A stretch of 64,000 nt of DNA, from NCBI GenBank assembly GCA_963747095.1, contig CAVVEL010000022.1:145193-209192 (forward strand). The letters are read 5' to 3'. Position numbers and translations under genes: made by a program. Source of the stretch: Terriglobia bacterium. GTDB lineage: Bacteria; Acidobacteriota; Terriglobia; JAJPHL01. Positions 3,711 through 63,828 of this stretch are shown here, one piece after another (within the stretch, counting starts at the first letter, position 1; every line of letters begins with the position of its first letter). The notes beneath the pieces are model-generated. The model was given only the letters and a program-made list of their open reading frames with translations, had not been told where the DNA came from and did no database searches.

Positions 3711-4659
3711 AGTGCATGCGCGGGCGCTTCAAGTGGCCTTCGAGAGACTTCTCGGGAGAGCTGACCAGGGTGCCGTTGCCTTTGTCCGTTGTCTAGCGCC
3801 TGAGGTTGTTGAAACGCTCGCCGGCGATTCTTCCTTCGCTCCCCGGGATTGGCAGGTTCGGCGCGTCGCTGATCGCGACCATTCCCAATCGCGGACAATT
3901 ACCGCAGACCGCGCTGTAGAGCTTCGTGAGATGAAGGCGGATGCCGTCCTGCTGTTGGTTGATACAGTCCGGGCAGGAGCCGGTATGGATGGTATCTACA
4001 GCGCCGCCAGAGAGGTCGATGAAGAGACCTTGTTCGGAGAGGCGCTGCGGTTGGCAGGCGAAGAGGTGAGAGCACGGCTATCTGTCAAGCATCGCCGATA
4101 TGCTGAGGAAGCCACAAAGAAGGCCCGTGGTCACGGTCGTCGCCTTAGTGTCTCGGTTTGGACCGAATTTGATTTTTTCTGTCGGATTGCGGCAGAAAGA
4201 AGGCATCCCGGCGAGTTCCTACATTTGCTCGGCTTGTGGCCCGTTTCGGAGTCCTCAGATTTTGGTGAAGAAGAAGGATTGGATCTCTCTCGTCTTTTTG
4301 TTGATCGCTTACTGGGAACATCGGTGTCCGGCATGCCGCCGGCACTACGGGTTGACGCTCTGAGATTGCACAAGCCGTCGGAACAACAGAGGGCGGATCT
4401 CGAAGGGTTCCTGCGCACGGCGTTGACTAGGCCGCTTCTGCCGGCCCTTGCGGATCTCGCGAGCAAGAAACATCTATGGGTCAATGAGGCTCAGAGTGGA
4501 AGGCGCTGCACATTCCATCCAAAGTATCGAGTTGTTGCCTTGGCGTACGAACACGGGGAAAGTCGCTCGGGGGAGTGGGCTGGAAGACGGCGGCGAAGGT
4601 CCTCCGATGCTGATCCTGCGAGCAGACTCGAATCAGAGCGGAGAGTATTCGAAACTTGA
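3697..4659 (+). CDS. Hypothetical protein; Arg-rich junk-like tail after ~4480 suggests it continues into 4448..8704 through a frameshift
   Basis: Start overlaps the upstream stop (ATGxxTGA-type coupling). The tail 'GRRRRRSSDADPASRLESERR' is atypical while the overlapping downstream frame is protein-like. Confidence 0.4.
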   Translation: MVWNEVHARALQVAFERLLGRADQGAVAFVRCLAPEVVETLAGDSSFAPRDWQVRRVADRDHSQSRTITADRAVELREMKADAVLLLVDTVRAGAGMDGIYSAAREVDEETLFGEALRLAGEEVRARLSVKHRRYAEEATKKARGHGRRLSVSVWTEFDFFCRIAAERRHPGEFLHLLGLWPVSESSDFGEEEGLDLSRLFVDRLLGTSVSGMPPALRVDALRLHKPSEQQRADLEGFLRTALTRPLLPALADLASKKHLWVNEAQSGRRCTFHPKYRVVALAYEHGESRSGEWAGRRRRRSSDADPASRLESERRVFET

Positions 4660-10036: not shown

Positions 10037-10909
10037 TTATCCCCATCTCGTCTTGCAGTACTCGATTGCCTCCCGCGTAGACAACTGTCGGGTTGAGTTC
10101 CCCGCTCGAATATACAGGTGCTCGCCGCCGCTCCCATCGGGAACGAAGACAGCTCTCCGCGCTGGTCTTGCGGACGCGCGGCACACATCACTACCCTCCA
10201 CGTTTTCGAAGTCGATTCCAATCAGTGGGCTGATGTCCTTTCCAAAAGCCCCGAGCAAGAGTGTCACGAGGAAATTTTCGAAACCGTCTCTGTCTTGTTT
10301 TTTGAGGGTCTTATAGTCATTCTCCAGGCCGACCACGTGACCGCTGTCATCAACCCCAATCAGCAGGAAGCCACCCTCAGAGTTCAGGAATGCTGCTACG
10401 GTCTTGACAATAACGACCTCCAACTCGTGATTTATCTTCTTAAGCCGTACATCCCAGCGAGCCGAAGTCTTAAACTCCAGTCCAGTGCTCTCACCTCTCT
10501 TGATCATCACAGAGACTGGTTCTTCGGGTAGCTTATTCAACGCCTTTCTTACTCGCGCTTGGAGCTCGTTGACGAGATCTTTCTTGCCCTTCGAAATGTA
10601 GTCGAAGGCGCCCACCTTCATACTCTCGACAGCATCTTCAAGCTCCGCGAAACCAGTGAGAATGATCCCTCGTAGGTCAGGCAATGTCTCTCGCAAACGG
10701 CCAAGCAGTGCAATACCAGACACTTCACTCGAAATTCGTTGATCGAGAATCGCGAGGGAAAAGTGCTCTGCCCGCGCCATTGCTTCTGCCTCTCTTGGAT
10801 CCGTTGTAACATGCAATTCATACTCACTCCCAAGCATGTCTTGGATTGTCTCGAGCCATGACTGCTGGTCGTCCACCACCAAGATCCGATGCCTATGCAT
10901 ACAAATCAC
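10037..10909 (-). CDS. Response regulator: N-terminal REC domain fused to AlbA_2 (Schlafen-like) domain
   Basis: REC: 'ILVVDDQQSWLETI...LAILDQRI...ILTGF'. AlbA_2 signature 'ESTGLEFKTS...VKTVAAFLNSEGGFLLIGVDDSGHVVGLE'. 4-nt overlap with the upstream gene. Confidence 0.75.
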   Translation of the reverse strand: MICMHRHRILVVDDQQSWLETIQDMLGSEYELHVTTDPREAEAMARAEHFSLAILDQRISSEVSGIALLGRLRETLPDLRGIILTGFAELEDAVESMKVGAFDYISKGKKDLVNELQARVRKALNKLPEEPVSVMIKRGESTGLEFKTSARWDVRLKKINHELEVVIVKTVAAFLNSEGGFLLIGVDDSGHVVGLENDYKTLKKQDRDGFENFLVTLLLGAFGKDISPLIGIDFENVEGSDVCRASARPARRAVFVPDGSGGEHLYIRAGNSTRQLSTREAIEYCKTRWG

Positions 10910-27747: not shown

Positions 27748-27841
27748 TGGCGGAGAGGGAGGGATTCGAACCCTCGTTAGAGGTATTAGCCCCTAAAACG
27801 GTTTAGCAAACCGCCGCCTTCAGCCACTCGGCCACCTCTCC
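27748..27841 (-). tRNA. tRNA-Ser (anticodon GCU), long variable arm
   Basis: Reverse complement reads 'GGAGAGGTGGCCGAGTGGCTGAAGGCGGCGGTTTGCTAAACCG...GGGTTCGAATCCCTCCCTCTCCGCCA': acceptor stem pairs, D-loop 'AGTGG', anticodon loop 'TTGCTAA', T-loop 'GGTTCGAATCC', encoded CCA. Confidence 0.8.
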
Positions 27842-27947: not shown

Positions 27948-29246
27948 ATGTCTGCTACCCCACCCGCCAGACTGGTCCGCGCCATCGGCCGTTGGAGTCT
28001 TTTCACTCTGGTGCTCAACTCGATGATCGGCAGCGGGGTGTTCAAACTCCCGTCCGATATCGCCGGACTGATCGGATGGTGGTCGCCCGCCGGCTACTTG
28101 ATCGCCGCGCTGGGTATGGGCGCGATCATGGCGGCCTTCGCCGAAGTGGCTTCGCAGTTCGATCAGGCCGGCGGACCCTACCTCTATGCGCGCGAGACCT
28201 TCGGCAGATTCGCCGGCATCCAAGTGGGTTGGTTGGCCTGGCTGGTACGGCTGACTTCGGCGGCGGCTAACGCCAACGTCTTCCTGCTTTATCTCGGAGA
28301 GTTCTGGCGGCCAGCTTCGTCGGGAGCGCCGCGCCTCATCGCCCTGACCCTTCTCCTCGGCGGATTGGCCATTGCCAACGTTCGCGGCGTCTCGGGCGGC
28401 GCGAATCTCAGCAATATTTTTGCGGCCGCCAAGCTTGTGCCGCTGCTCTTGTTCATCGGCGTGGGCCTGTTTTTTCTGTCCGTTCATGGATTACCGGTGA
28501 CTTTCCCGCCGCCCGCCGTTCCCCTCGCCAAATGGAGCGAGGCGATTCTCCTGCTGGTGTTCGCGTTCGGCGGATTCGAAGGCGGATTGATGTCCCAGGG
28601 CGAAGCGCGCGATCCCCGGCGCGACGTGCCCTTTGCGTTGATGATGGCGCTGGCCGTCACCACGGTGATCTACGCCCTGAATCAGGTAGTGGCGCAAGGC
28701 GCCTTGCCTGTGGGGTCGATGAGCCAGCGGCCGCTGGCCGACGCCGCGCGCGTGATGATCGGTGGCGGAGGCGCGGCGCTCATCTCCCTGGGCGCGTTGA
28801 TCTCCGTGTACGGATATCTCAGTTCGCAGATGCTCAACGCGCCGCGCTTGACGTTCGCGCTGGCCGAAGGCGGCGACTTCCCGAGTTTTCTCAGCGCCGT
28901 TCATGCGCGCTTCCGCACGCCGTGGGTTTCCATCGTGCTCTACGCCGTGCTGGTTTGGACGCTGACCGCCGCCGCCGATTTCCGCTGGAACGCTACGCTT
29001 TCCGCCGTGGGACGATTGTTCACTTACGCCGCAGTCTGCGGCGCCCTGCCCGCGCTGCGGCGCTGGCAGCCGGATCGCCCGGCGTTCCGCCTCCCCGGCG
29101 GCTTGGCCTTTGCGGGAATCGGGCTGCTGTTCTGCGTGGCCATGATCTCCCGTATGGGCCGTTCCGACATGCAGGTGATCGCCGCCACCGTGCTACTGGC
29201 GCTAGCCAACTGGTGGTGGGTGGTAAGACGGCAGGCCCGAGGCTAA
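27948..29246 (+). CDS. APC-family amino acid permease
   Basis: 12-TM-like hydrophobic profile; N-terminal 'SLFTLVLNSMIGSGVFKLPSDIA' typical of APC transporters. Confidence 0.8.
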   Translation: MSATPPARLVRAIGRWSLFTLVLNSMIGSGVFKLPSDIAGLIGWWSPAGYLIAALGMGAIMAAFAEVASQFDQAGGPYLYARETFGRFAGIQVGWLAWLVRLTSAAANANVFLLYLGEFWRPASSGAPRLIALTLLLGGLAIANVRGVSGGANLSNIFAAAKLVPLLLFIGVGLFFLSVHGLPVTFPPPAVPLAKWSEAILLLVFAFGGFEGGLMSQGEARDPRRDVPFALMMALAVTTVIYALNQVVAQGALPVGSMSQRPLADAARVMIGGGGAALISLGALISVYGYLSSQMLNAPRLTFALAEGGDFPSFLSAVHARFRTPWVSIVLYAVLVWTLTAAADFRWNATLSAVGRLFTYAAVCGALPALRRWQPDRPAFRLPGGLAFAGIGLLFCVAMISRMGRSDMQVIAATVLLALANWWWVVRRQARG

Positions 29247-29310
29247 AGGCCCGAGGCCCGAGTCTAAGGACTTCCCTCGACTCGGGCCTCGGGCCTCGTG
29301 GCTCGGGCCT
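29247..29310. terminator. Bidirectional hairpin terminator between convergent permease and HEAT-repeat genes
   Basis: 'GGCCCGAGGCCCGAGTC...GACTCGGGCCTCGGGCC' inverted repeat followed by 'TTTATTTTTGA'. Confidence 0.5.
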
Positions 29311-30684
29311 TTATTTTTGATACCTCTCCAAAACCTGCACCGCGCGGATGGCCGAGGTGATCACGTCGTCTTTGGAATCGTGGATCAGCGGGCGCACGTA
29401 CTCCAGCGCCGCGGGATTGGCGATGGACGCCAGCACGTCGCACAGGTAGCGGCGAATATCGGTTTTCTCGGATTTGAGATAGGGATAGAACTGCGGCAGC
29501 CGCGCCGGATCGCGGCCCAATTCGGTCAGGTAGGCGATACCGTACTGGCGATGCAAGGCGGAATCCAGCGCTTGCATCAAGTCGGCCAGCATGGCGGTTT
29601 GTCCGTGGGCCGCCAGGGCGAAGGCCAGCGCCAGTTTCACGCGCGCGTTTTTCTCCGTGGTGCGGCGCGCGGCGATCTTCTCCACGGCTCCCGCCGTCAG
29701 GGCGGAATCCGGAACGCGGCCCAGGCCGTCCGCGGCAAATTCGCGCAGGCGATCGTCGGGGTCGTTCAGGAATCTCAAGAACCATTCGGCATGCTGTGGC
29801 TCCGGCATCAGCGAGAGCGCCTCAAAGGCGCTGTGCCGCACGTCCTTATCCCGATCACCTTCGTAAAGTTTCTGCAGCGGACCAATCTGATCGTGCGCGC
29901 CGAGCAAACCCAAGGTGTAAGCGGCTTGTGCGCGGGTGGCCTTGTCGGAACTTTTCAACAGCCGGGCCACGGCGGGGATGGCGCGCGGATCGCGGATCTT
30001 CTGGAACGCCTTCATGATTTCGATCTTCACCACGGGAGGCGCGTGGAACAACACGTCGGCCATCGCGGGAACCGCGGCCGTGCCGCGCAACACGCCGGCG
30101 GCGCGCGCCGCGTGCTCGGCCGTCTGGTCGTCGGGATCGCCCACCGCTACGCCCATCGCGGCGATGGCGGCAGGATCCACCGGCGTGCCCGGCGCCACGA
30201 TCATGTCATCGGAGCTGTGCTGGAAAAGATCCACGGCACGATGGAAAACATTGGTGATGGGAGCGGTCAGGCTGTTGGAACTGGTGGCCGGGGTCACGTA
30301 CAACGTGACGATGCCTTCAATCGCGCTCATTTTCACGCGCCGCGAAGGATCGCGCGTGGCTTCCGCCAGCGCCGGGATACTGGAGCGATCCAGCAGGCTG
30401 CCCAACGCCTCCACCGCCCGGAAGCGAGTTTCCTCGTCCAGATCCTTGACCATCTTGCTGAGCGGCGGCACCGCGCGGCGGTCGCCCAGTTCGCCCAGCT
30501 TTTTGCAAGCCTCGCGACGAATGAGCGGATCGCGATTGTCGAGGCGGCCCACCAGAGCCTCGTAGCCAATGTCGGCGGCCTTTTGGCTCGTCTTGGCGCT
30601 AGTCTGGGGCGACCCATCTTGCGCGGGGAGAAGCGATACGCCTAACACTGCGACACCGAGAGTACGAAGTAGCATCGGATTCAT
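29311..30684 (-). CDS. Secreted HEAT/PBS-lyase-like repeat protein
   Basis: Signal peptide; repeated 'DP.IRR.A...LG.LGD..AVP.L' units. Confidence 0.7.
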   Translation of the reverse strand: MNPMLLRTLGVAVLGVSLLPAQDGSPQTSAKTSQKAADIGYEALVGRLDNRDPLIRREACKKLGELGDRRAVPPLSKMVKDLDEETRFRAVEALGSLLDRSSIPALAEATRDPSRRVKMSAIEGIVTLYVTPATSSNSLTAPITNVFHRAVDLFQHSSDDMIVAPGTPVDPAAIAAMGVAVGDPDDQTAEHAARAAGVLRGTAAVPAMADVLFHAPPVVKIEIMKAFQKIRDPRAIPAVARLLKSSDKATRAQAAYTLGLLGAHDQIGPLQKLYEGDRDKDVRHSAFEALSLMPEPQHAEWFLRFLNDPDDRLREFAADGLGRVPDSALTAGAVEKIAARRTTEKNARVKLALAFALAAHGQTAMLADLMQALDSALHRQYGIAYLTELGRDPARLPQFYPYLKSEKTDIRRYLCDVLASIANPAALEYVRPLIHDSKDDVITSAIRAVQVLERYQK

Positions 30685-30968
30685 TGGGGGCCGGCCTGCG
30701 CTTTCATTCTACTCCACAGATTGCACAACCGGAAGATCATCCACAGATTACACAGATTTCACAGATTCGGAACTCTCCGAATCCATACGTCCCATGCTTC
30801 CCAGATTCGCCACCTGCGGAGGGCGGCCCCGTTCCCAACAACCTGCGGAGCCAAACTGCATATTAACACTTGACAGTTTTTTTGCTTGAGTCTGATGTAC
30901 GTAGTGATTTAGAATAACAGTGTTAACTGGGCAGGACGAGTATCGTAATTCCCGATGGAGGGCTGTCA

Positions 30969-33719: not shown

Positions 33720-34031
33720 CTGGAGTTTCTACATTTGCACTCCGGCGTCCGTGAAGCGGACGCCGAGCCAGCGTAGCTGGCGGCATGATTTAGCCCACAG
33801 CGTAAGCTGTGGGTCAGGAATCGAGGCAATCCAAGCCCGCGAATGCGGGCGACATAAAAGCCTGTTGGCAACGTTGTGCCGGCCCGAGAACCGGCTTTTA
33901 TGTCGCCCGCCTTCGCGGGCTTTCGGCCTTTGCTCATGAACCCACAGCTTGCGCTGTGGCTAAATCATGCCACCGGCTACGCCGGTTGCTTTCCGCTTCG
34001 CGGACATCCGATGAAAATGTAGAAACTCCAG
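33720..34031. repeat. ~310-nt nested palindromic element (three concentric inverted-repeat pairs)
   Basis: 'TGGAGTTTCTACATTT...' pairs with '...AAATGTAGAAACTCCA'; 'CATGATTTAGCCCACAGCGTAAGCTGTGGGT' with 'ACCCACAGCTTGCGCTGTGGCTAAATCATG'; 'GCCCGCGAATGCGGGCGACATAAAAGCC' with 'GGCTTTTATGTCGCCCGCCTTCGCGGGC'. Confidence 0.6.
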
Positions 34032-34638
34032 GGCCCGTTGAAAAAACGCGTGCTGCTTGACGAGTGCGTTGACGTCCGGCTGGGCCTCCGATCTCGCCCA
34101 TCATGAGGTTCGCAGCGTCCTAAGAGATTGCTCGGGCAAGCGTTGAATCGAGTTACTGCGAGATCGCCGGCCGGCAAAGGGCGGACCCGCTAACAGGTAG
34201 ACGCGCGGTCAGTGGGAACCTTACCCGTCCAGGCCGACCCCTTGCCCCCTCCCCTTTCCTCCCCTTCCTCCAAGCAACGCGGGGAGATCGCGCTAACGAA
34301 ACCTGAATTGGATGAGCTTCGAACGCATGGGCGGTTCTTCATTAGCCCGCGTGTGGAGAGGGATGTGCTCCGGTTGGCCGGCGAGTAGGACCGTTACTTC
34401 GCAAACTGGGGAAGGACGGGATCGCCTGTCCCTGCGTCGTGTTTTTTTTCGCATCGTCTGCCGCCAGCATTTCTCCAACCACGGAACGCCAGCCAGAAGG
34501 TCAGACTGTCGTTGCCGCGAAAAACTGTGCGCGAAAAATCGCTACGCAGATCAGGATGAGCCCTTTTTGTCCCCCTTTTGTCCCAAAGCATGGAGTAAGC
34601 CTGGTGCGCGAAGAGCACGCAAGGAGAGCGGAAGCAAT

Positions 34639-34896: not shown

Positions 34897-35036
34897 CGAC
34901 ACTACTCTATCTATCTATCCGCAGGTGTCACAGATGATCGCAGGTAAACCATTACTTTCTTTCTTATCTGCGTTCATCTGCGACATCTGCGGATAGAAGT
35001 TCTTGACTTGACTCTCCTTTCTGTCATGAACTCAAC

Positions 35037-38500: not shown

Positions 38501-38659
38501 GTTCCCATGTTGGTGCCGCTGGTGTGCGAGGCCAATGCCGTCAAAGTGTCGCAGATAGGCGTACAGCATCTTGGTGTCGGGCGCGCCGCCGGGATCGGCT
38601 TCGTTGACCTTGGGCAAGCGCGGCAAAGTGCGGATTGCCCGCTGCGCGAAAATGGTGCG

Positions 38660-38805
38660 GGAAATGCTGGGGAAATGCTGGGGACAGCCTGATCTGCGTA
38701 ATCACTTTTGTGCGAGTGGATACTCTCGAAAGGATGATTCGTCAAGAAAAACAGCTTACGCAGATCAGGCTGTCCCAGCATTTCCCAGCATTTCCCAGCA
38801 TTTCC
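38660..38805. repeat. MITE-like inverted-repeat element with 10-mer tandem units (CCCAGCATTT)x3 / (AAATGCTGGG)x2
   Basis: 'GGGAAATGCTGGGGAAATGCTGGGGACAGCCTGATCTGCGTAA' ... ~54-nt loop ... 'TTACGCAGATCAGGCTGTCCCAGCATTTCCCAGCATTTCCCAGCATTTCC'. Confidence 0.6.
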
Positions 38806-40640: not shown

Positions 40641-40803
40641 AATAAGTATAAGCTTCGATGTTCTCACTATTGCGAACGTTGGTCAAGTCCCGAATGTGCG
40701 TGTGAAGTCCCGAATGTGCGTGACACTGGTTCAGTTCCGCAGGATCGACGATTTTCAATCCGGTCGCTCTTGGCCGCGACAGCCAGGCGCTAGTTCTGTG
40801 AGC

Positions 40804-48422: not shown

Positions 48423-50420
48423 ATGGAACAGTTGCAAGCAAAGATCAACAACAGGCCCATTTCGATTTGGCTCCTGGCGGGCACTCTGCTGGCGGTTCCG
48501 TTGGCCCTGGCGCCGCCTCTGGAAGCCTTTGATGTAACGCCGAGGCTTTTAGCGCTCGTAGGAGGAGCGATCGCCGTTTGGCTGGCGCTAGCGCTTACGC
48601 CCGTTGGGGAAGAGGCGAAAGACAAGGCGGAAGAGAAGGCAAAAGAGAAGGCGGAAGGCAAAAGGCAAAAGGCAAAAGGCAAAAGTGAACGTTCCGTACC
48701 GCCCTTTTGCCTTTTGCCTTTTGCCTTTTGCCTTTTGCCTTCGTTTCTTTTCTTCGCCTCATTGATGGCCCTGGCACTGTGCGCCACGGCCGCGACGATT
48801 TTTTCCGCCGATCCAGTGCTGTCGCTGGCCGGGTCGGAGTGGCGGCGGTTGGGTTTGCCCGCGTGGCTGGCTTGCCTGGCGCTGGCCGCGTCCATTCCCG
48901 CGGCCGCCACTGACGAAGCGCGCAAACGCCTTCTCCTCCAGGCCATCGCCCTCGGCGGAACGCTCGCCGCCTTCTACAGCTTCGCGCAATATGCCGGGCA
49001 CGATCCGTGGATTCGTCCCGCGCTCTACCAGATCGGCGAAGGCGAGTGGCGAATCGTGCGCCCGCCGGCGACTTTCGGCTACGTCAGTTATTTCGCCCTC
49101 TACGAGGCTTCCGCGATTTTCGTGGCTGCCGGCCTGGCGCTCTCCGCAACTTCGCGTGGGATCAGAATTGGCTGGAGTGTCTCCGCTGTGGCGATGGTCC
49201 TGGCAGTCATCGTCTCCGGCAGCCGCGGGGCGCTGCTGGGCGCCGCCGCCGGGGTGCTGGCGCTGATCCTGCGTTATTCCAGCGACCGCCGCATGCGCCG
49301 CGCGCTTCTAGCAGGCACACTTGTGGTAGCCGCGCTGGCCGGCGCGCTGATCGCCAGCCCCCTGGGCCAGCCGGTTAGCAGCAGGATCCGATGGTTCGTG
49401 GAAGATCCCGAAGGCGGCGGCCGGCTGGTGATGTGGCGCGACTCAGCCAGATTAGCTCTCGCTCATCCGCTTCTCGGCGTGGGACTGGAAACGTTTGGCC
49501 GGCAGTTCGCGGCGGCAGAGTCGTTGGAACTGGCGCGCCGTTTTCCCGATCGCTATGTGGAGTCGCCGCACAATATTTTCCTCGACTACGCGACCGCCGC
49601 CGGAATGCCGGCGCTGGCCGCTTTCGGTGTGCTCATGATCGTGGCCCTGCGCGGCACATGGTGCCGACCCGATCCCGCGCTGTTCGCCGCACTGATCGCA
49701 GGTTTGCTCGCGGCGCAGTTTGTTGCCGACACCATAACCACGCGGCTGCTGCTTCTGTCGCTGGCTGCGCTGGCGCTTCCGCAGGAGCCACCCGCCCGCG
49801 CCAGCGGCGCTACTCGCTGGATGACGGGGCTCGGCGCGGTGCTGGCCACGATGGTTCTGCTTGTTTTTGGCGGCCGCCTGATCTCCGCCGATCGCGCGGC
49901 CTCGCGGGCCCAGTCCGCCGCATCGCGCGGCGAGTTGGACACCCTGGTCGAAGCCGGACGCGCTTCGGCAGAGGCGTTTCCTTGGGGTGGCGCGTACGCC
50001 GTGCGGCAGTCGCGGCTGTTGGGACAGGTGGCGATGATACCCAGTCTTCCCGGACCCGCCAGAGGGTTCCTTTTTCTGCAAGCGGAGGCCCTGGCGCGAG
50101 AAGCCTTGCCCCATGCCGAGCAGCCGGGCGCAATCCATCTGCAACTGGCGTCGGTGGCGGGGATACAGGGGAGATATCCGGAAGCGCAGTCCGAGCTGGA
50201 GGCGGCGATTCAGGCGTCTCCGGCGTGGTTCCGGCCGCACTGGCAACTCGCGATGCTGTTGTGGCAACAAGGCCGCCGCGCCGAGGCCGCGCAGCAAGCG
50301 GGTTTGGCGCTAGAGCGCGGCGCGCGCGCTTTTCCGGAGGTGTCCGCGGAGTGTGTAAGAATCCAAACGCTGGCGCGAGACTCCGACGCAAAGCCAGCCT
50401 TGACACTGGCGTTGAATTAG
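48423..50420 (+). CDS. O-antigen ligase (Wzy_C)-like membrane protein with C-terminal TPR region; carries an in-frame palindromic insertion
   Basis: 'VIVSGSRGALLGAAAG', 'HNIFLDYATAAG'. Low-complexity segment 'EGKRQKAKGKSERSVPPFCLLPFAFCLLPS' is encoded by the (GGCAAAA)n/(CTTTTGC)n hairpin. The called start at 48360 would overlap the divergent gene, so ATG 48423 is likelier. Confidence 0.7.
   Translation: MEQLQAKINNRPISIWLLAGTLLAVPLALAPPLEAFDVTPRLLALVGGAIAVWLALALTPVGEEAKDKAEEKAKEKAEGKRQKAKGKSERSVPPFCLLPFAFCLLPSFLFFASLMALALCATAATIFSADPVLSLAGSEWRRLGLPAWLACLALAASIPAAATDEARKRLLLQAIALGGTLAAFYSFAQYAGHDPWIRPALYQIGEGEWRIVRPPATFGYVSYFALYEASAIFVAAGLALSATSRGIRIGWSVSAVAMVLAVIVSGSRGALLGAAAGVLALILRYSSDRRMRRALLAGTLVVAALAGALIASPLGQPVSSRIRWFVEDPEGGGRLVMWRDSARLALAHPLLGVGLETFGRQFAAAESLELARRFPDRYVESPHNIFLDYATAAGMPALAAFGVLMIVALRGTWCRPDPALFAALIAGLLAAQFVADTITTRLLLLSLAALALPQEPPARASGATRWMTGLGAVLATMVLLVFGGRLISADRAASRAQSAASRGELDTLVEAGRASAEAFPWGGAYAVRQSRLLGQVAMIPSLPGPARGFLFLQAEALAREALPHAEQPGAIHLQLASVAGIQGRYPEAQSELEAAIQASPAWFRPHWQLAMLLWQQGRRAEAAQQAGLALERGARAFPEVSAECVRIQTLARDSDAKPALTLALN
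48657..48739. repeat. Perfect hairpin of tandem heptamers (GGCAAAA)x4 ... 18-nt loop ... (CTTTTGC)x5 inside the coding sequence
   Basis: 'GGCAAAAGGCAAAAGGCAAAAGGCAAAAG TGAACGTTCCGTACCGCC CTTTTGCCTTTTGCCTTTTGCCTTTTGCCTTTTGCC'. Confidence 0.6.
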
Positions 50421-51278: not shown

Positions 51279-51412
51279 ATCCACAGATTACACAGATTTC
51301 ACAGATTAAGACGGCGTTCGCCCGGACCTCCGCGCCATTCACCGGGCTTGACATCTCCTGACTGCACGGGCAAGCGCCGTCTTAATCTGTGGAATCTGTG
51401 TAATCTGTGGAT
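51279..51412. repeat. 29-nt motif ATCCACAGATTACACAGATTTCACAGATT, its inverted copy ~75 nt downstream (large hairpin), plus two further direct copies of TGTAATCTGTGGAT overlapping the GT4 start
   Basis: Exact 29-mer also at ~30739-30767; inverted copy 'AATCTGTGGAATCTGTGTAATCTGTGGAT'; inner palindrome 'AAGACGGCG...CGCCGTCTT'; further copies at ~51445-51459 and ~51495-51509. Confidence 0.5.
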
Positions 51413-51518
51413 TGTTGTTTTTTGGTTGCGGCCGTGGCTGCGCCGTGTAATCTGTGGATCGTGGGTTTTTCACTTGGTTCTGGCTCCCCGCGCTGTGTAA
51501 TCTGTGGATGATTTCCGT

Positions 51519-61947: not shown

Positions 61948-63828
61948 TTAGCGCCGCTCCAAAGTCAGCCGGAACGCAGCCATCTCCTGGCCGTTGCGAA
62001 CCAGCAGTTCGTCGCCAGCCAGCGCCGGGTGGCTCCAGGTCTTGCCCTCGATCCCTGGAACCCGAGCCAGTTCCTTGAACTGGTCAGGGGTCGCCGAGAC
62101 CAACGCCAGATCGCCTTCTTCCGCCAACACCAGCAGCACGTCCTGGTCGGGCAACAGAACCAGCTGGCCGGCGCCGTAGCGTCCGCCCTTCCACTTGCGC
62201 GTGCCGTCCTTGAGATCGATGCAGGTCATGATGCTGCCGTCAAAGCCGTAGACATAGCCTTTATGAACGACGTAGTCGCTGAAGTTGGGCTTCAGAAAGT
62301 TCGACGTCCAGCGTTCTTCGGCGGTCCAGCCGCTGGGTCCGTGCGCGACCGCGACGCGGCGCACGCCGACTCCTGCGAGTGCCTCGCCGGCGGCCATGAG
62401 CAAGTCACTGTCCGAGATCATGGCCGGCTGCGCGATGCGGGTGTCCGTCTTCCACGGGTACTGCCAAAGCAGCTTGCCGTCGGCCGGGGCCATGCTGATC
62501 GCGCCATGTCCGCTCATCAGCAGGACCTGCGCGACTCCGTCGATCGTCACGAGATGAGGCGAACTGTAGCCGTCGCCGCCGGCGGGGCCGGTCCAGCGCG
62601 GTTTGCCGGTGGCCAAGTCGAAGGCGGCGAGCTTGCCTTGGACGCCGACGATTAGCTCGTCATCAACCACCAACGGCGAACTGGTGAAACCCCAGACCGG
62701 AACCTTCGTGTTGGTGTCAGTGGCCGCGTTGCGCGACCATACCACCGCGCCGGTAAGAGCGTCGAGAGCTTTCAAGATCCCTGTCGCGCCAAACGCATAG
62801 ACACGTCCCTGGTGAAGAGTCGGCGTCCCGCGTGGACCCGGGCCGCCATTCGACTCGTAAAACCGGGCTTCGTCTCGATGGATCCACACCGGCTTACCGG
62901 TGGCCGCGTTGTAGCAGGAGACGACCTCGTCGTTGCCGCGTTGTTCCTGGGTGTAGATGAGGCCGCCATGGACCGCAAAGGACGACCAGCCCGGCCCGAT
63001 CGGCCGGCGCCATAGCTCGGCCGGCGGCGACGCCGACCAGTCGGTGGCGATCCGCAAGCCGGGGATAATGGCGTCGCGATTAGGCCCGCGAAAGCCGGGC
63101 CACTCGGGGCCGGTTTCCGTAGCAACTGGAGTCGCCAGAGCAGGTTTAGTCGCTGCCGGGGTAGCCTTAGTCGCTGCCGTGGCTTCTTTGGTCGCCGCCG
63201 GAGTTGCCGTAGGAGTTGCCAGGGCCGCCGCCGGAGCCGCTGCCGGAGTTGCCAGTGCCGTTACCGGCGCTGCCACGAGCGGCTCATTGGCGGCTTGCGC
63301 CAAGAACCGTTCCTCCGGAGTCTGCGACCAGCGCCAATGGAGGTCGTGCTTGAAGTGGCTGGTGAAGCCACCGGTCCGGGCGCACGCCCATCCTCCACAC
63401 GCGATCAGGATGGCGGCGGCCAGCGTCGCACGACGAAGCCCGTCCGACAGAGGCAGACGGCTGGTGGCCACTGCCCACGCGACCAAGGCAAGGCCCACGG
63501 TCGGCGGCGCCAAAGCGAATAGGAAGAGGAACCCCATCGAACCGGTGGCGATGGACTTGTCGAGGATGAACGACGTCCCGTACATCGCGACGATAATCAA
63601 GACCAGGGCGCCCAGGCGCTCGGACCATGGCGCCCGGCTGAAGAACAGCCACCACAGAAGGATAGCCACCGCACAACCGAGGCTGCCAAATAGGGAGATG
63701 AGGACCTCGTCAGGCGCGACGATGGGGACGACAAACTTGGACAGCAATAGCAGCACCGCCAGGGCCACGGCGGGCCATAGGCGGAGCGGCTTGCGAGGAT
63801 TCGGTTCGTTAGTTTGAGAAGTAGTCAT
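61948..63828 (-). CDS. 4-TM + PQQ-like beta-propeller protein (paralog 2, intact)
   Basis: Collinear with paralog 1 from 'RKPLRLWPAVALAVLLLLSKF' to 'GKTWSHPALAGDELLVRNGQEMAAFRLTL'. Confidence 0.7.
   Translation of the reverse strand: MTTSQTNEPNPRKPLRLWPAVALAVLLLLSKFVVPIVAPDEVLISLFGSLGCAVAILLWWLFFSRAPWSERLGALVLIIVAMYGTSFILDKSIATGSMGFLFLFALAPPTVGLALVAWAVATSRLPLSDGLRRATLAAAILIACGGWACARTGGFTSHFKHDLHWRWSQTPEERFLAQAANEPLVAAPVTALATPAAAPAAALATPTATPAATKEATAATKATPAATKPALATPVATETGPEWPGFRGPNRDAIIPGLRIATDWSASPPAELWRRPIGPGWSSFAVHGGLIYTQEQRGNDEVVSCYNAATGKPVWIHRDEARFYESNGGPGPRGTPTLHQGRVYAFGATGILKALDALTGAVVWSRNAATDTNTKVPVWGFTSSPLVVDDELIVGVQGKLAAFDLATGKPRWTGPAGGDGYSSPHLVTIDGVAQVLLMSGHGAISMAPADGKLLWQYPWKTDTRIAQPAMISDSDLLMAAGEALAGVGVRRVAVAHGPSGWTAEERWTSNFLKPNFSDYVVHKGYVYGFDGSIMTCIDLKDGTRKWKGGRYGAGQLVLLPDQDVLLVLAEEGDLALVSATPDQFKELARVPGIEGKTWSHPALAGDELLVRNGQEMAAFRLTLERR

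Follow-up and report, generated by a model that had tools for sequence, protein, structure and literature searches.

An in-frame pair of inverted heptanucleotide arrays in a Wzy_C-family gene of a Terriglobia bacterium

The hairpin and its host gene

We analysed a repeat hairpin inside a predicted O-antigen-ligase-like gene on a 64,000-nt stretch of DNA from a Terriglobia bacterium (assembly GCA_963747095.1, contig CAVVEL010000022.1, positions 145,193 to 209,192 of the forward strand; hereafter, the window). The hairpin consists of two complementary arrays of a 7-nt unit, A4GGC on the 5' side and GCCT4 on the 3' side, and is read in frame as part of the protein. The host gene is divergent from a Bac_transf/Wzz/GT4 polysaccharide gene cluster. 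Its product is identical to database protein P0001, and it has homologues named Bryobacterales or Bryobacteraceae. Residues 275-422 of the open reading frame (ORF) matched the Pfam family PF04932 (Wzy_C; E = 1e-23, 84 bits against a cut-off of 31.7). A TPR_2 match (E = 4e-4) lay under Pfam's curated cut-off, and TPR fold matches supported a C-terminal TPR domain. The AlphaFold2 model of the protein reached a mean predicted local distance difference test (pLDDT) score of 92 and a predicted template-modelling (pTM) score of 0.91, and its best PDB match in a Foldseek search was WaaL (7tpg, E = 6e-7). Profile and model indicate that the host protein is a Wzy_C, O-antigen-ligase-like protein with a WaaL-like polytopic fold, and a predicted enzyme.

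Reading the window directly, we located four copies of GGCAAAA at 48657-48684 and five copies of CTTTTGC at 48704-48738. A repeat search returned a stem that is perfect over 32 nt (48654-48685 with 48711-48742) and a longer stem of two 39-nt arms, 95% complementary and 18 nt apart (48647-48685 with 48704-48742); both mismatches in the longer stem are G-T and become G.U pairs in the sense mRNA. Tandem Repeats Finder (TRF) reported period-7 arrays at 48636-48685 and 48703-48741. The DNA of the hairpin region folded at -57.4 kcal/mol, compared with -27.3 +/- 3.2 kcal/mol for shuffled sequences (z = -9.6), and the 147-nt insert folded as RNA at -76.7 kcal/mol. The sequence, the repeat search, TRF and the fold therefore all agreed with the heptamer hairpin of the original prediction, and the peptide quoted there is the true in-frame translation. 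A 21-nt pattern of three units had six matches, all of them at the hairpin and none elsewhere in the 64 kb (0.00 expected from 100 shuffles). The A4GGC/GCCT4 unit contains no stop codon in any frame of either strand. The degenerate 12-nt repeats on the 5' side (Table 1) are an expansion found in the window allele only, lacking a complement on the 3' side and absent from the related loci L129, L141 and L001 described below. The end of the T-rich stretch that follows the stem is complementary to GAGGCGAA at 48612-48619, with which it pairs in the minimum-free-energy structure.

Table 1. Features of the hairpin locus in the window
Feature	Position	Strand	Description
Host gene	48423..50420	+	Predicted 665-amino-acid Wzy_C (O-antigen-ligase-like) membrane protein with C-terminal TPR domain
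Extra segment relative to the insert-free orthologue	48597..48743	+	147 nt, 49 codons, TPVGEEAKDKAEEKAKEKAEGKRQKAKGKSERSVPPFCLLPFAFCLLPS; from codon-anchored comparison with L003/P0002 (24-nt loop, EGKRPQGP)
Degenerate 12-nt in-frame repeats	48613..48661	+	AAGGCGGAAGAG-like, about 4 copies, encoding (E/D)KA(K/E); TRF period 12, 4.1 copies, 78% matches
5' arm	48647..48685	+	Degenerate AAGGCGG and four perfect AAGGCAA; encodes EGKRQKAKGK
Loop	48686..48703	+	TGAACGTTCCGTACCGCC, 18 nt; TGA in one alternative frame
3' arm	48704..48742	+	Five perfect CTTTTGC and CTTC; encodes (P)FCLLPFAFCLLPS
T-rich stretch	48743..48761	+	GTTTCTTTTCTTCGCCTC, directly 3' of the stem; codes the native start of the next transmembrane helix (FLFFAS), from the orthologue alignment

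The hairpin occupies codons 76-107 of 665. The model places helices at residues 13-27 and 39-58, ahead of the insert, which probably sits between the second and third helices and not between the first and second; the predicted in-frame position between transmembrane helices of a Wzy_C protein was thus right and is refined to helices 2 and 3. Termini aside, the insert is the only low-confidence part of the model, with pLDDT means of 49-69 in 10-residue blocks over residues 61-100. The element lies at the boundary of a short loop and the next transmembrane helix, and by the positive-inside rule the loop that bears it is probably cytoplasmic. In alignments of 18 and 74 homologues, conserved N-terminal helices and motifs flank the element on either side, and the ORF is therefore not a read-through artefact. 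A true start codon 3' of the hairpin was likewise ruled out; the N-terminal helices and the FDVTPK motif upstream are kept in all orthologues. The distance between the invariant residues W53 and G137 was 34-53 residues in 72 of the 74 homologues, 64 in P0003 and 83 in the window protein, so that the insert is limited to a small clade among them. The case in which all orthologues would carry an equivalent loop encoded by non-repetitive DNA, raised together with the prediction, does not apply; 72 of the 74 homologues have a short loop at this position.

An allelic series of the element in orthologues

We fetched the DNA of related loci and measured allele lengths between the same codon anchors. 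The orthologue P0002 (L003) has 24 nt and no hairpin. The allele shared by L001 and L002 (P0003) has 90 nt, with two units in the 3' arm and a degenerate 5' arm. The L141 allele has 110 nt, which leaves a remainder of 2 on division by three, and the gene is called there as two overlapping ORFs. The window allele has 147 nt, with 5 + 5 units and the 18-nt loop, and the L129 allele has 201 nt, with 5 + 5 units around a centre of about 80 nt, in frame. The right arm contains five units in L129, four in L141 and two in L001, the length steps being exactly 7 nt (L129 vs L141) and 21 nt (L129 vs L001).

The window, L129, L141 and L001 alleles have both junctions in common (left, TTGG.G...GCGAAGGC; right, GCCTTCGT) and therefore descend from one event. 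The window loop looks like the L129 centre (GTGAAC...GTTCCGCC, about 80 nt) with its middle deleted. In three of the four hairpin-bearing DNA alleles the length is a multiple of three, both arms are read in the same frame (GKRQKAKGK and PPFCLLP) and the ORF is open to the contig limit, which argues that the element is translated and not removed. Relatives keep the hairpin potential, with RNA folding energies of -101.5 kcal/mol in L129 and -45.8 kcal/mol in L001. Two further searches with the N-terminal protein sequence added only P0091 and P0092; the latter, a read-derived protein fragment, seems to keep the 3'-arm peptide alone (PFAFCLVPSSS).

Pairwise identities suggest the branching ((P0001,P0002),P0003). 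P0002 has most likely lost an element gained in the common ancestor, with an EGKR remnant left behind; independent gains may be the alternative. Between the window and L129, the coding flanks agree at 68% of positions, and at only 44% of third codon positions, whereas the unit is identical in both. With flanks this diverged and arrays this perfect, the locus must be old and the perfect arrays either young or constrained.

The orthologous wzy gene of L141 (633-2544) is split into three called ORFs, with the frameshift at the heptamer hairpin of the 110-nt allele. About 700 nt downstream, the same contig also lacks 1 nt in GGCGG(T)GGGCG, and it has other 1-nt indels that compensate; the L141 gene is either a decaying pseudogene or part of an error-prone contig.

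Separately, the orthologue P0004 (L004, about 10195-10245) has a different, small and imperfect hairpin in the same protein loop, GCAGATTGC...GCAAATCTGC. Its peptide, ...SACRLLPANL..., is faintly like the FCLLP of the 3' arm, and this hairpin may be a decayed remnant or an independent one.

The same unit in other genomes and in known repeat systems

In 185,579 species genomes scanned for (AAGGCAA)3, at least 118 loci were listed. The matches listed, which do not include the source genome, come from cyanobacteria, Acidobacteriota, Bacteroidota, Chloroflexota and other groups. An inverted partner array lay within 300 nt in 19 of the 118 listed loci, giving the layout (AAGGCAA)n - loop - (TTGCCTT)n, and the A-rich AAGGCAA arm was 5' in all 19 of these pairs (opposite order, 0). 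Their loops and flanks were unrelated to one another and to the window. Many same-unit hairpins, in Acidobacteriota and several other phyla, start within a few bases of a stop codon that ends one long ORF or either of two converging ones. All fetched loci together contained 29 inverted pairs among 443 short arrays; among pairs with other units, 17 of 21 were purine-first (p = 0.007). Long ORFs spanning heptamer arrays elsewhere were mostly read-through from upstream or downstream, and only L094 looked truly intragenic.

In L094, an array of (AAGGCAA)4.6 at 4221-4252 lies within an ORF whose match to the BcrAD_BadFG ATPase family (residues 13-299) spans it (residues about 116-126), making this a possible second in-frame intragenic heptamer array. 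The 1105-bp metagenome contig L128 has three tandem units of about 74 nt with ...CTCCGCATCCGCCCTTTTGCC(T/G)ATTGCCTTTTGACTTTTGCC..GCGAGCGAAGCGAAGCGA, a higher-order repeat of heptamer arrays, and it has a CTCCGCATCCGCCC junction in common with L126.

Heptanucleotides are reported to be the most abundant class of long simple sequence repeats (SSRs) and are ascribed to slippage, and repeat units that are not multiples of three are rare inside genes (Mrazek 2007, as cited in PMC4679880). In Xanthomonas, convergent inverted pairs of heptamer arrays (GGGAATC) number 70-75 cases per genome (Rehm et al. 2015, PMC4692102), and the type of array, single or paired, stays the same from species to species although the length does not (PMC4692102). 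Like the element described here, in which an array of one degenerate and four perfect units faces a convergent complementary array 18 nt away, these pairs have near-perfect 7-nt tandem units with a complementary convergent array nearby, can possibly form a stem-loop and differ in array length between related genomes (PMC4692102). They differ in being G-rich, discussed as quadruplex-forming, present as about 185 arrays of one unit per genome, and described relative to neighbouring ORFs (PMC4692102). By contrast, the A4GGC element is translated inside a conserved ORF and is the sole locus of its unit in the window, rather than one of many same-unit loci at intergenic sites.

Tandem heptanucleotides of cyanobacteria (Mrazek 2007, as cited in PMC4679880; Calothrix, as cited in PMC4692102) and the TAACTGA repeats of Beggiatoaceae (PMC4679880) likewise have a 7-nt unit and a patchy distribution across phyla, and slippage has been proposed for them. 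These, however, are mostly single direct arrays and intergenic, and PMC4679880 and PMC4692102 describe no palindromic, in-frame, orthologously conserved case among them. The combination seen here is thus an inverted heptamer SSR pair that is intragenic, translated and conserved across lineages with variable length; no new kind of system is demonstrated.

A hairpin that is probably translated and evolves by slippage

Taking these results together, we consider it probable (roughly 0.6) that the element, (A4GGC)n - centre - (GCCT4)n, is an inverted pair of heptanucleotide SSR arrays that is old and evolves locally: a terminator-like hairpin that is translated, evolves by slippage and is tolerated in a Wzy_C-TPR gene. 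The A4GGC/GCCT4 pair would have the layout of a bidirectional intrinsic terminator, namely a small G+C stem flanked by an A tract and, opposite, a T tract. Such a layout would explain the arm order and why these hairpins favour gene ends and turn up in distant phyla. Tolerance within the protein may come from the arms being codon complements, so that they necessarily encode a charged peptide and then a hydrophobic one: the Lys/Arg/Gly/Ala/Gln of the 5' arm would suit a charged, probably cytoplasmic loop, and the Leu/Pro/Phe/Ala/Cys of the 3' arm the start of a membrane helix. Length would change in two ways, through deletions of the centre and through replication slippage, the latter in steps of 7 nt. 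Hairpin-templated (quasi-palindrome) copying may keep the arms alike, as may selection on the stem, or the two together. Template switching at quasi-palindromes homogenises inverted-repeat arms (PMC7202029), also in coding DNA (PMC8604942), and could make imperfect arms identical within a gene; it is a mutational process and not a family of elements, and the perfection of the arms alone points to its action here. Selection at the level of the enzyme would keep only in-frame combinations, single-unit slips inactivating the gene. By default, we read the element as a tolerated, mutable passenger that would make its gene unusually easy to switch off.

Several points weigh against this reading. The exact unit is conserved despite near-saturated synonymous sites, for which neutral slippage alone is insufficient, and either constraint or repeated re-expansion would be needed. 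Slippage itself is deduced from differences between lineages that are 14-30% diverged, and homogenisation of the arms by template switching is proposed from the literature. The membrane side of the loop is deduced from the positive-inside rule and the topology of WaaL, and the search for further copies in the source genome covered 64 kb only.

Bacterial heptanucleotide repeats, reportedly the commonest of the long simple repeats, are largely unexplained in origin and function. The orthologous series of 24-, 90-, 110-, 147- and 201-nt alleles of one repeat hairpin in a conserved gene is a rare resource in this respect, with the reading frame as a built-in recorder of the length changes that survived. 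It shows that such hairpins can last for long evolutionary times in coding DNA while changing by unit steps, and the charged-then-hydrophobic translation of the arms may explain where they are tolerated. The strict order of an A-rich 5' arm and a T-rich 3' arm across phyla offers a simple, testable rule on the origin or selection of these repeats.

Alternative explanations

The slippage-prone passenger favoured above has properties of a contingency locus, and the original prediction had proposed a tract prone to slipped-strand mispairing and able to phase-vary the polysaccharide enzyme. In silico, each single-unit slip truncated the protein at residues 83-165, and four two-arm combinations (-1/+1, -1/-2, +2/-2 and +2/+1) gave back full length, which gives the sequence the capacity to work as a frameshift switch. 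The tract lies within an ORF (codons 76-107), and changes in the number of its 7-nt units, a length that is not a multiple of three, shift the frame. That proposal held up in mechanism only, through the 7-nt steps between alleles, the out-of-frame L141 allele and the truncation in silico, and was weakened by the second 1-nt deletion in the L141 contig.

An adaptive version of this reading makes the two heptamer arrays the dials of a reversible frameshift switch for a surface-polysaccharide enzyme, for example under phage pressure. The host gene is of a class that is typically phase-variable, relatives differ in unit number by 7-nt steps, and a frameshifted allele exists. There are also precedents. 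Haemophilus has tetranucleotide repeats in lipopolysaccharide genes and a heptanucleotide tract, (AATTTTG)14, within hmw1A (PMC2651432, PMC11868660), so that an intragenic heptanucleotide SSR with a frameshift is known (PMC2651432). Like these contingency loci, the element is a tract in an ORF for a surface structure, with a unit that is not a multiple of three, frameshifting by gain or loss of units and a natural frameshifted allele. The Haemophilus loci, however, are single long arrays that often exceed 10 units, and switching has been measured in these host-adapted pathogens, whereas the element here comprises two short complementary arrays that form a hairpin in a soil Acidobacterium. For a fast switch, 4-5 units per arm are few. 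L001 and L002 come from two samples and do not differ at the locus, and the arm counts of five, four and two belong to lineages (L129, L141 and L001) that are about 14% or more diverged. The one out-of-frame contig, L141, has its separate 1-nt deletion and may reflect a pseudogene or sequencing errors, and the element is absent from most of the clade. The evidence for use as an adaptive switch is weak, and we regard this explanation as rather unlikely. If it were true, environmental Acidobacteriota would join the bacteria that phase-vary their surface polysaccharides through SSRs.

A broader proposal strikes us as distinctly unlikely. It would make the hairpin a domesticated, two-dial contingency switch with which a free-living soil Acidobacterium reversibly turns a Wzy-type enzyme on and off, and which may serve at the same time as a translation-dependent intragenic terminator. 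The hairpin would also be one case of an orientation-constrained class (A/purine-rich arm 5') made by a dedicated mechanism and not by chance slippage.

The hairpin and the T-rich tract after it could also have been selected together to couple the expression of Wzy to translation, as an intragenic terminator, an attenuator or a ribosome roadblock. As RNA the stem is very stable, both of its mismatches form G.U pairs in the sense mRNA, and GUUUCUUUUCUU (GTTTCTTTTCTT) follows it directly in the window. Elsewhere, same-unit hairpins among the listed loci stand at expected terminator sites, always with the T-rich arm 3', and hairpin potential is kept in L129 and L001. The T-rich tail, however, is not conserved, L129, L141 and L001 having GTCTTC(G/C)... 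instead; stem length and loop vary widely among alleles, and P0092 seems to retain the 3'-arm peptide only. The hairpin does not lie at the 3' end of a transcription unit, being within codons 76-107. There was no Rfam match at the hairpin: a search of the whole window at gathering thresholds returned one tRNA and Acido-Lenti-1, both elsewhere. A terminator scan, which accepts loops of up to 8 nt, passed over the large hairpin with its loop of 18 nt; the scan's sole call at the locus was a 5-bp stem in the loop, on the minus strand. A role of this kind appears improbable. An intrastrand-triplex motif (PMC4666352) was set aside as well; the arms are inverted and not mirror repeats.

The original prediction had also offered a small palindromic mobile element, and we considered both an insertion resembling a miniature inverted-repeat transposable element (MITE) and a dedicated repeat-adding process that landed in the gene, for instance one that adds repeats onto both 3' ends of a break before they are joined. 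The closest orthologue, P0002, lacks the element, distant phyla have hairpins of the same unit and architecture, and an arm order this strict (19 of 19 listed pairs, and 17 of 21 with other units) would be expected of 3'-end addition on both sides of a break. The A4GGC/GCCT4 units, however, would explain the orientation rule equally by a terminator function. Searches for other copies of the element found none in the 64 kb of the source genome covered, and BLAST comparison of the window loop and an 85-nt L129 centre with the 141 fetched loci and the window (about 1 Mb) gave only short chance matches. No target-site duplication was seen at the junctions, and the same-unit hairpins compared had no conserved core and no terminal inverted repeats beyond the repeat units. 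The junctions common to four alleles point to one old event followed by local evolution, and P0002 is not a clean empty site: its EGKR-coding remnant fits loss better. With no second copy in these 64 kb, no conserved flanks among the same-unit hairpins compared and no target-site duplication seen, a MITE or mobile element was rejected, and insertion of either kind is very improbable.

Rickettsia palindromic elements (RPE) provide the nearest comparison, being multi-copy elements of conserved sequence with 44 insertions in ten families (review, PMC10969869). RPE and MITEs within genes, like the element here, are palindromic in-frame segments of about 100-150 nt in conserved proteins, and the added peptide is tolerated by the fold (PMC10969869). 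The element here differs from RPE in being built of simple repeats, with no second copy in the window and no conserved core or target-site duplication found.

Finally, a fold-back chimera in a metagenome-assembled contig is scarcely credible: palindromes are known to trouble assembly and the window probably comes from a metagenome-assembled genome, but homologous elements occur in four independent Joint Genome Institute assemblies (L001, L002, L129 and L141) and in the read-derived P0092, and the ORF is open across the element.

Other repeats and features of the window

The window contains three more inverted pairs of short repeats with other units, one of them between convergent stop codons and one just after a stop codon. 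A second heptamer hairpin, at 29233-29310, has the form (AGGCCCG)~4 - loop - (CGGGCCT)~4, with TTTATTTTTG after it. An amino-acid permease gene has its stop codon within the 5' arm (ORF end, 29246), and a convergent HEAT-repeat gene ends at 29311, directly past the 3' arm.

Another pair, at 51282-51411, reads (CACAGATTA)3 AGACGGCG, about 60 nt, then CGCCGTCT (TAATCTGTG)3 and a T run; it lies 40 nt past the stop codon of a 268-amino-acid gene downstream of wzy. Its 9-nt unit also forms a single array at 30742-30767 (region 30715-30767) and occurs as isolated copies at 51449, 51499 and 7787. A related pair, (CACAGATAAA)3/(TTATCTGTGT)3, lies at 18911-18982 of L001.

The third pair, at 38641-38805, comprises (GGGAAATGCTG)3 with a 17-nt inverted repeat (CAGCCTGATCTGCGTAA), about 60 nt, and then the complement with (TCCCAGCATT)3. 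Its 13-nt core, TACGCAGATCAGG, occurs again at 34543 (34541-34585), there before a different tandem repeat, (CCCTTTTTGTC)2. ATCTGCG is repeated three times at 34966-34991. These sites indicate a conserved core whose tandem repeats vary. None of the fetched loci contained the core, and searches of these loci for a shared core, with TACGCAGATCAGG and with CACAGAT arrays, gave nothing useful.

The two Rfam matches lie on the minus strand: the Acido-Lenti-1 small RNA at 33766-33813, with 38 bits against a gathering score of 37, and the tRNA at 27751-27841. Taken with the Bryobacterales and Bryobacteraceae homologues, they suggest that the DNA is acidobacterial and Bryobacterales-like. TRF also reported a perfect 20-nt tandem duplication at 40685-40722, (AAGTCCCGAATGTGCGTGTG)x1.9, and a block of GC-rich 21/33-nt tandem repeats at 63140-63275.

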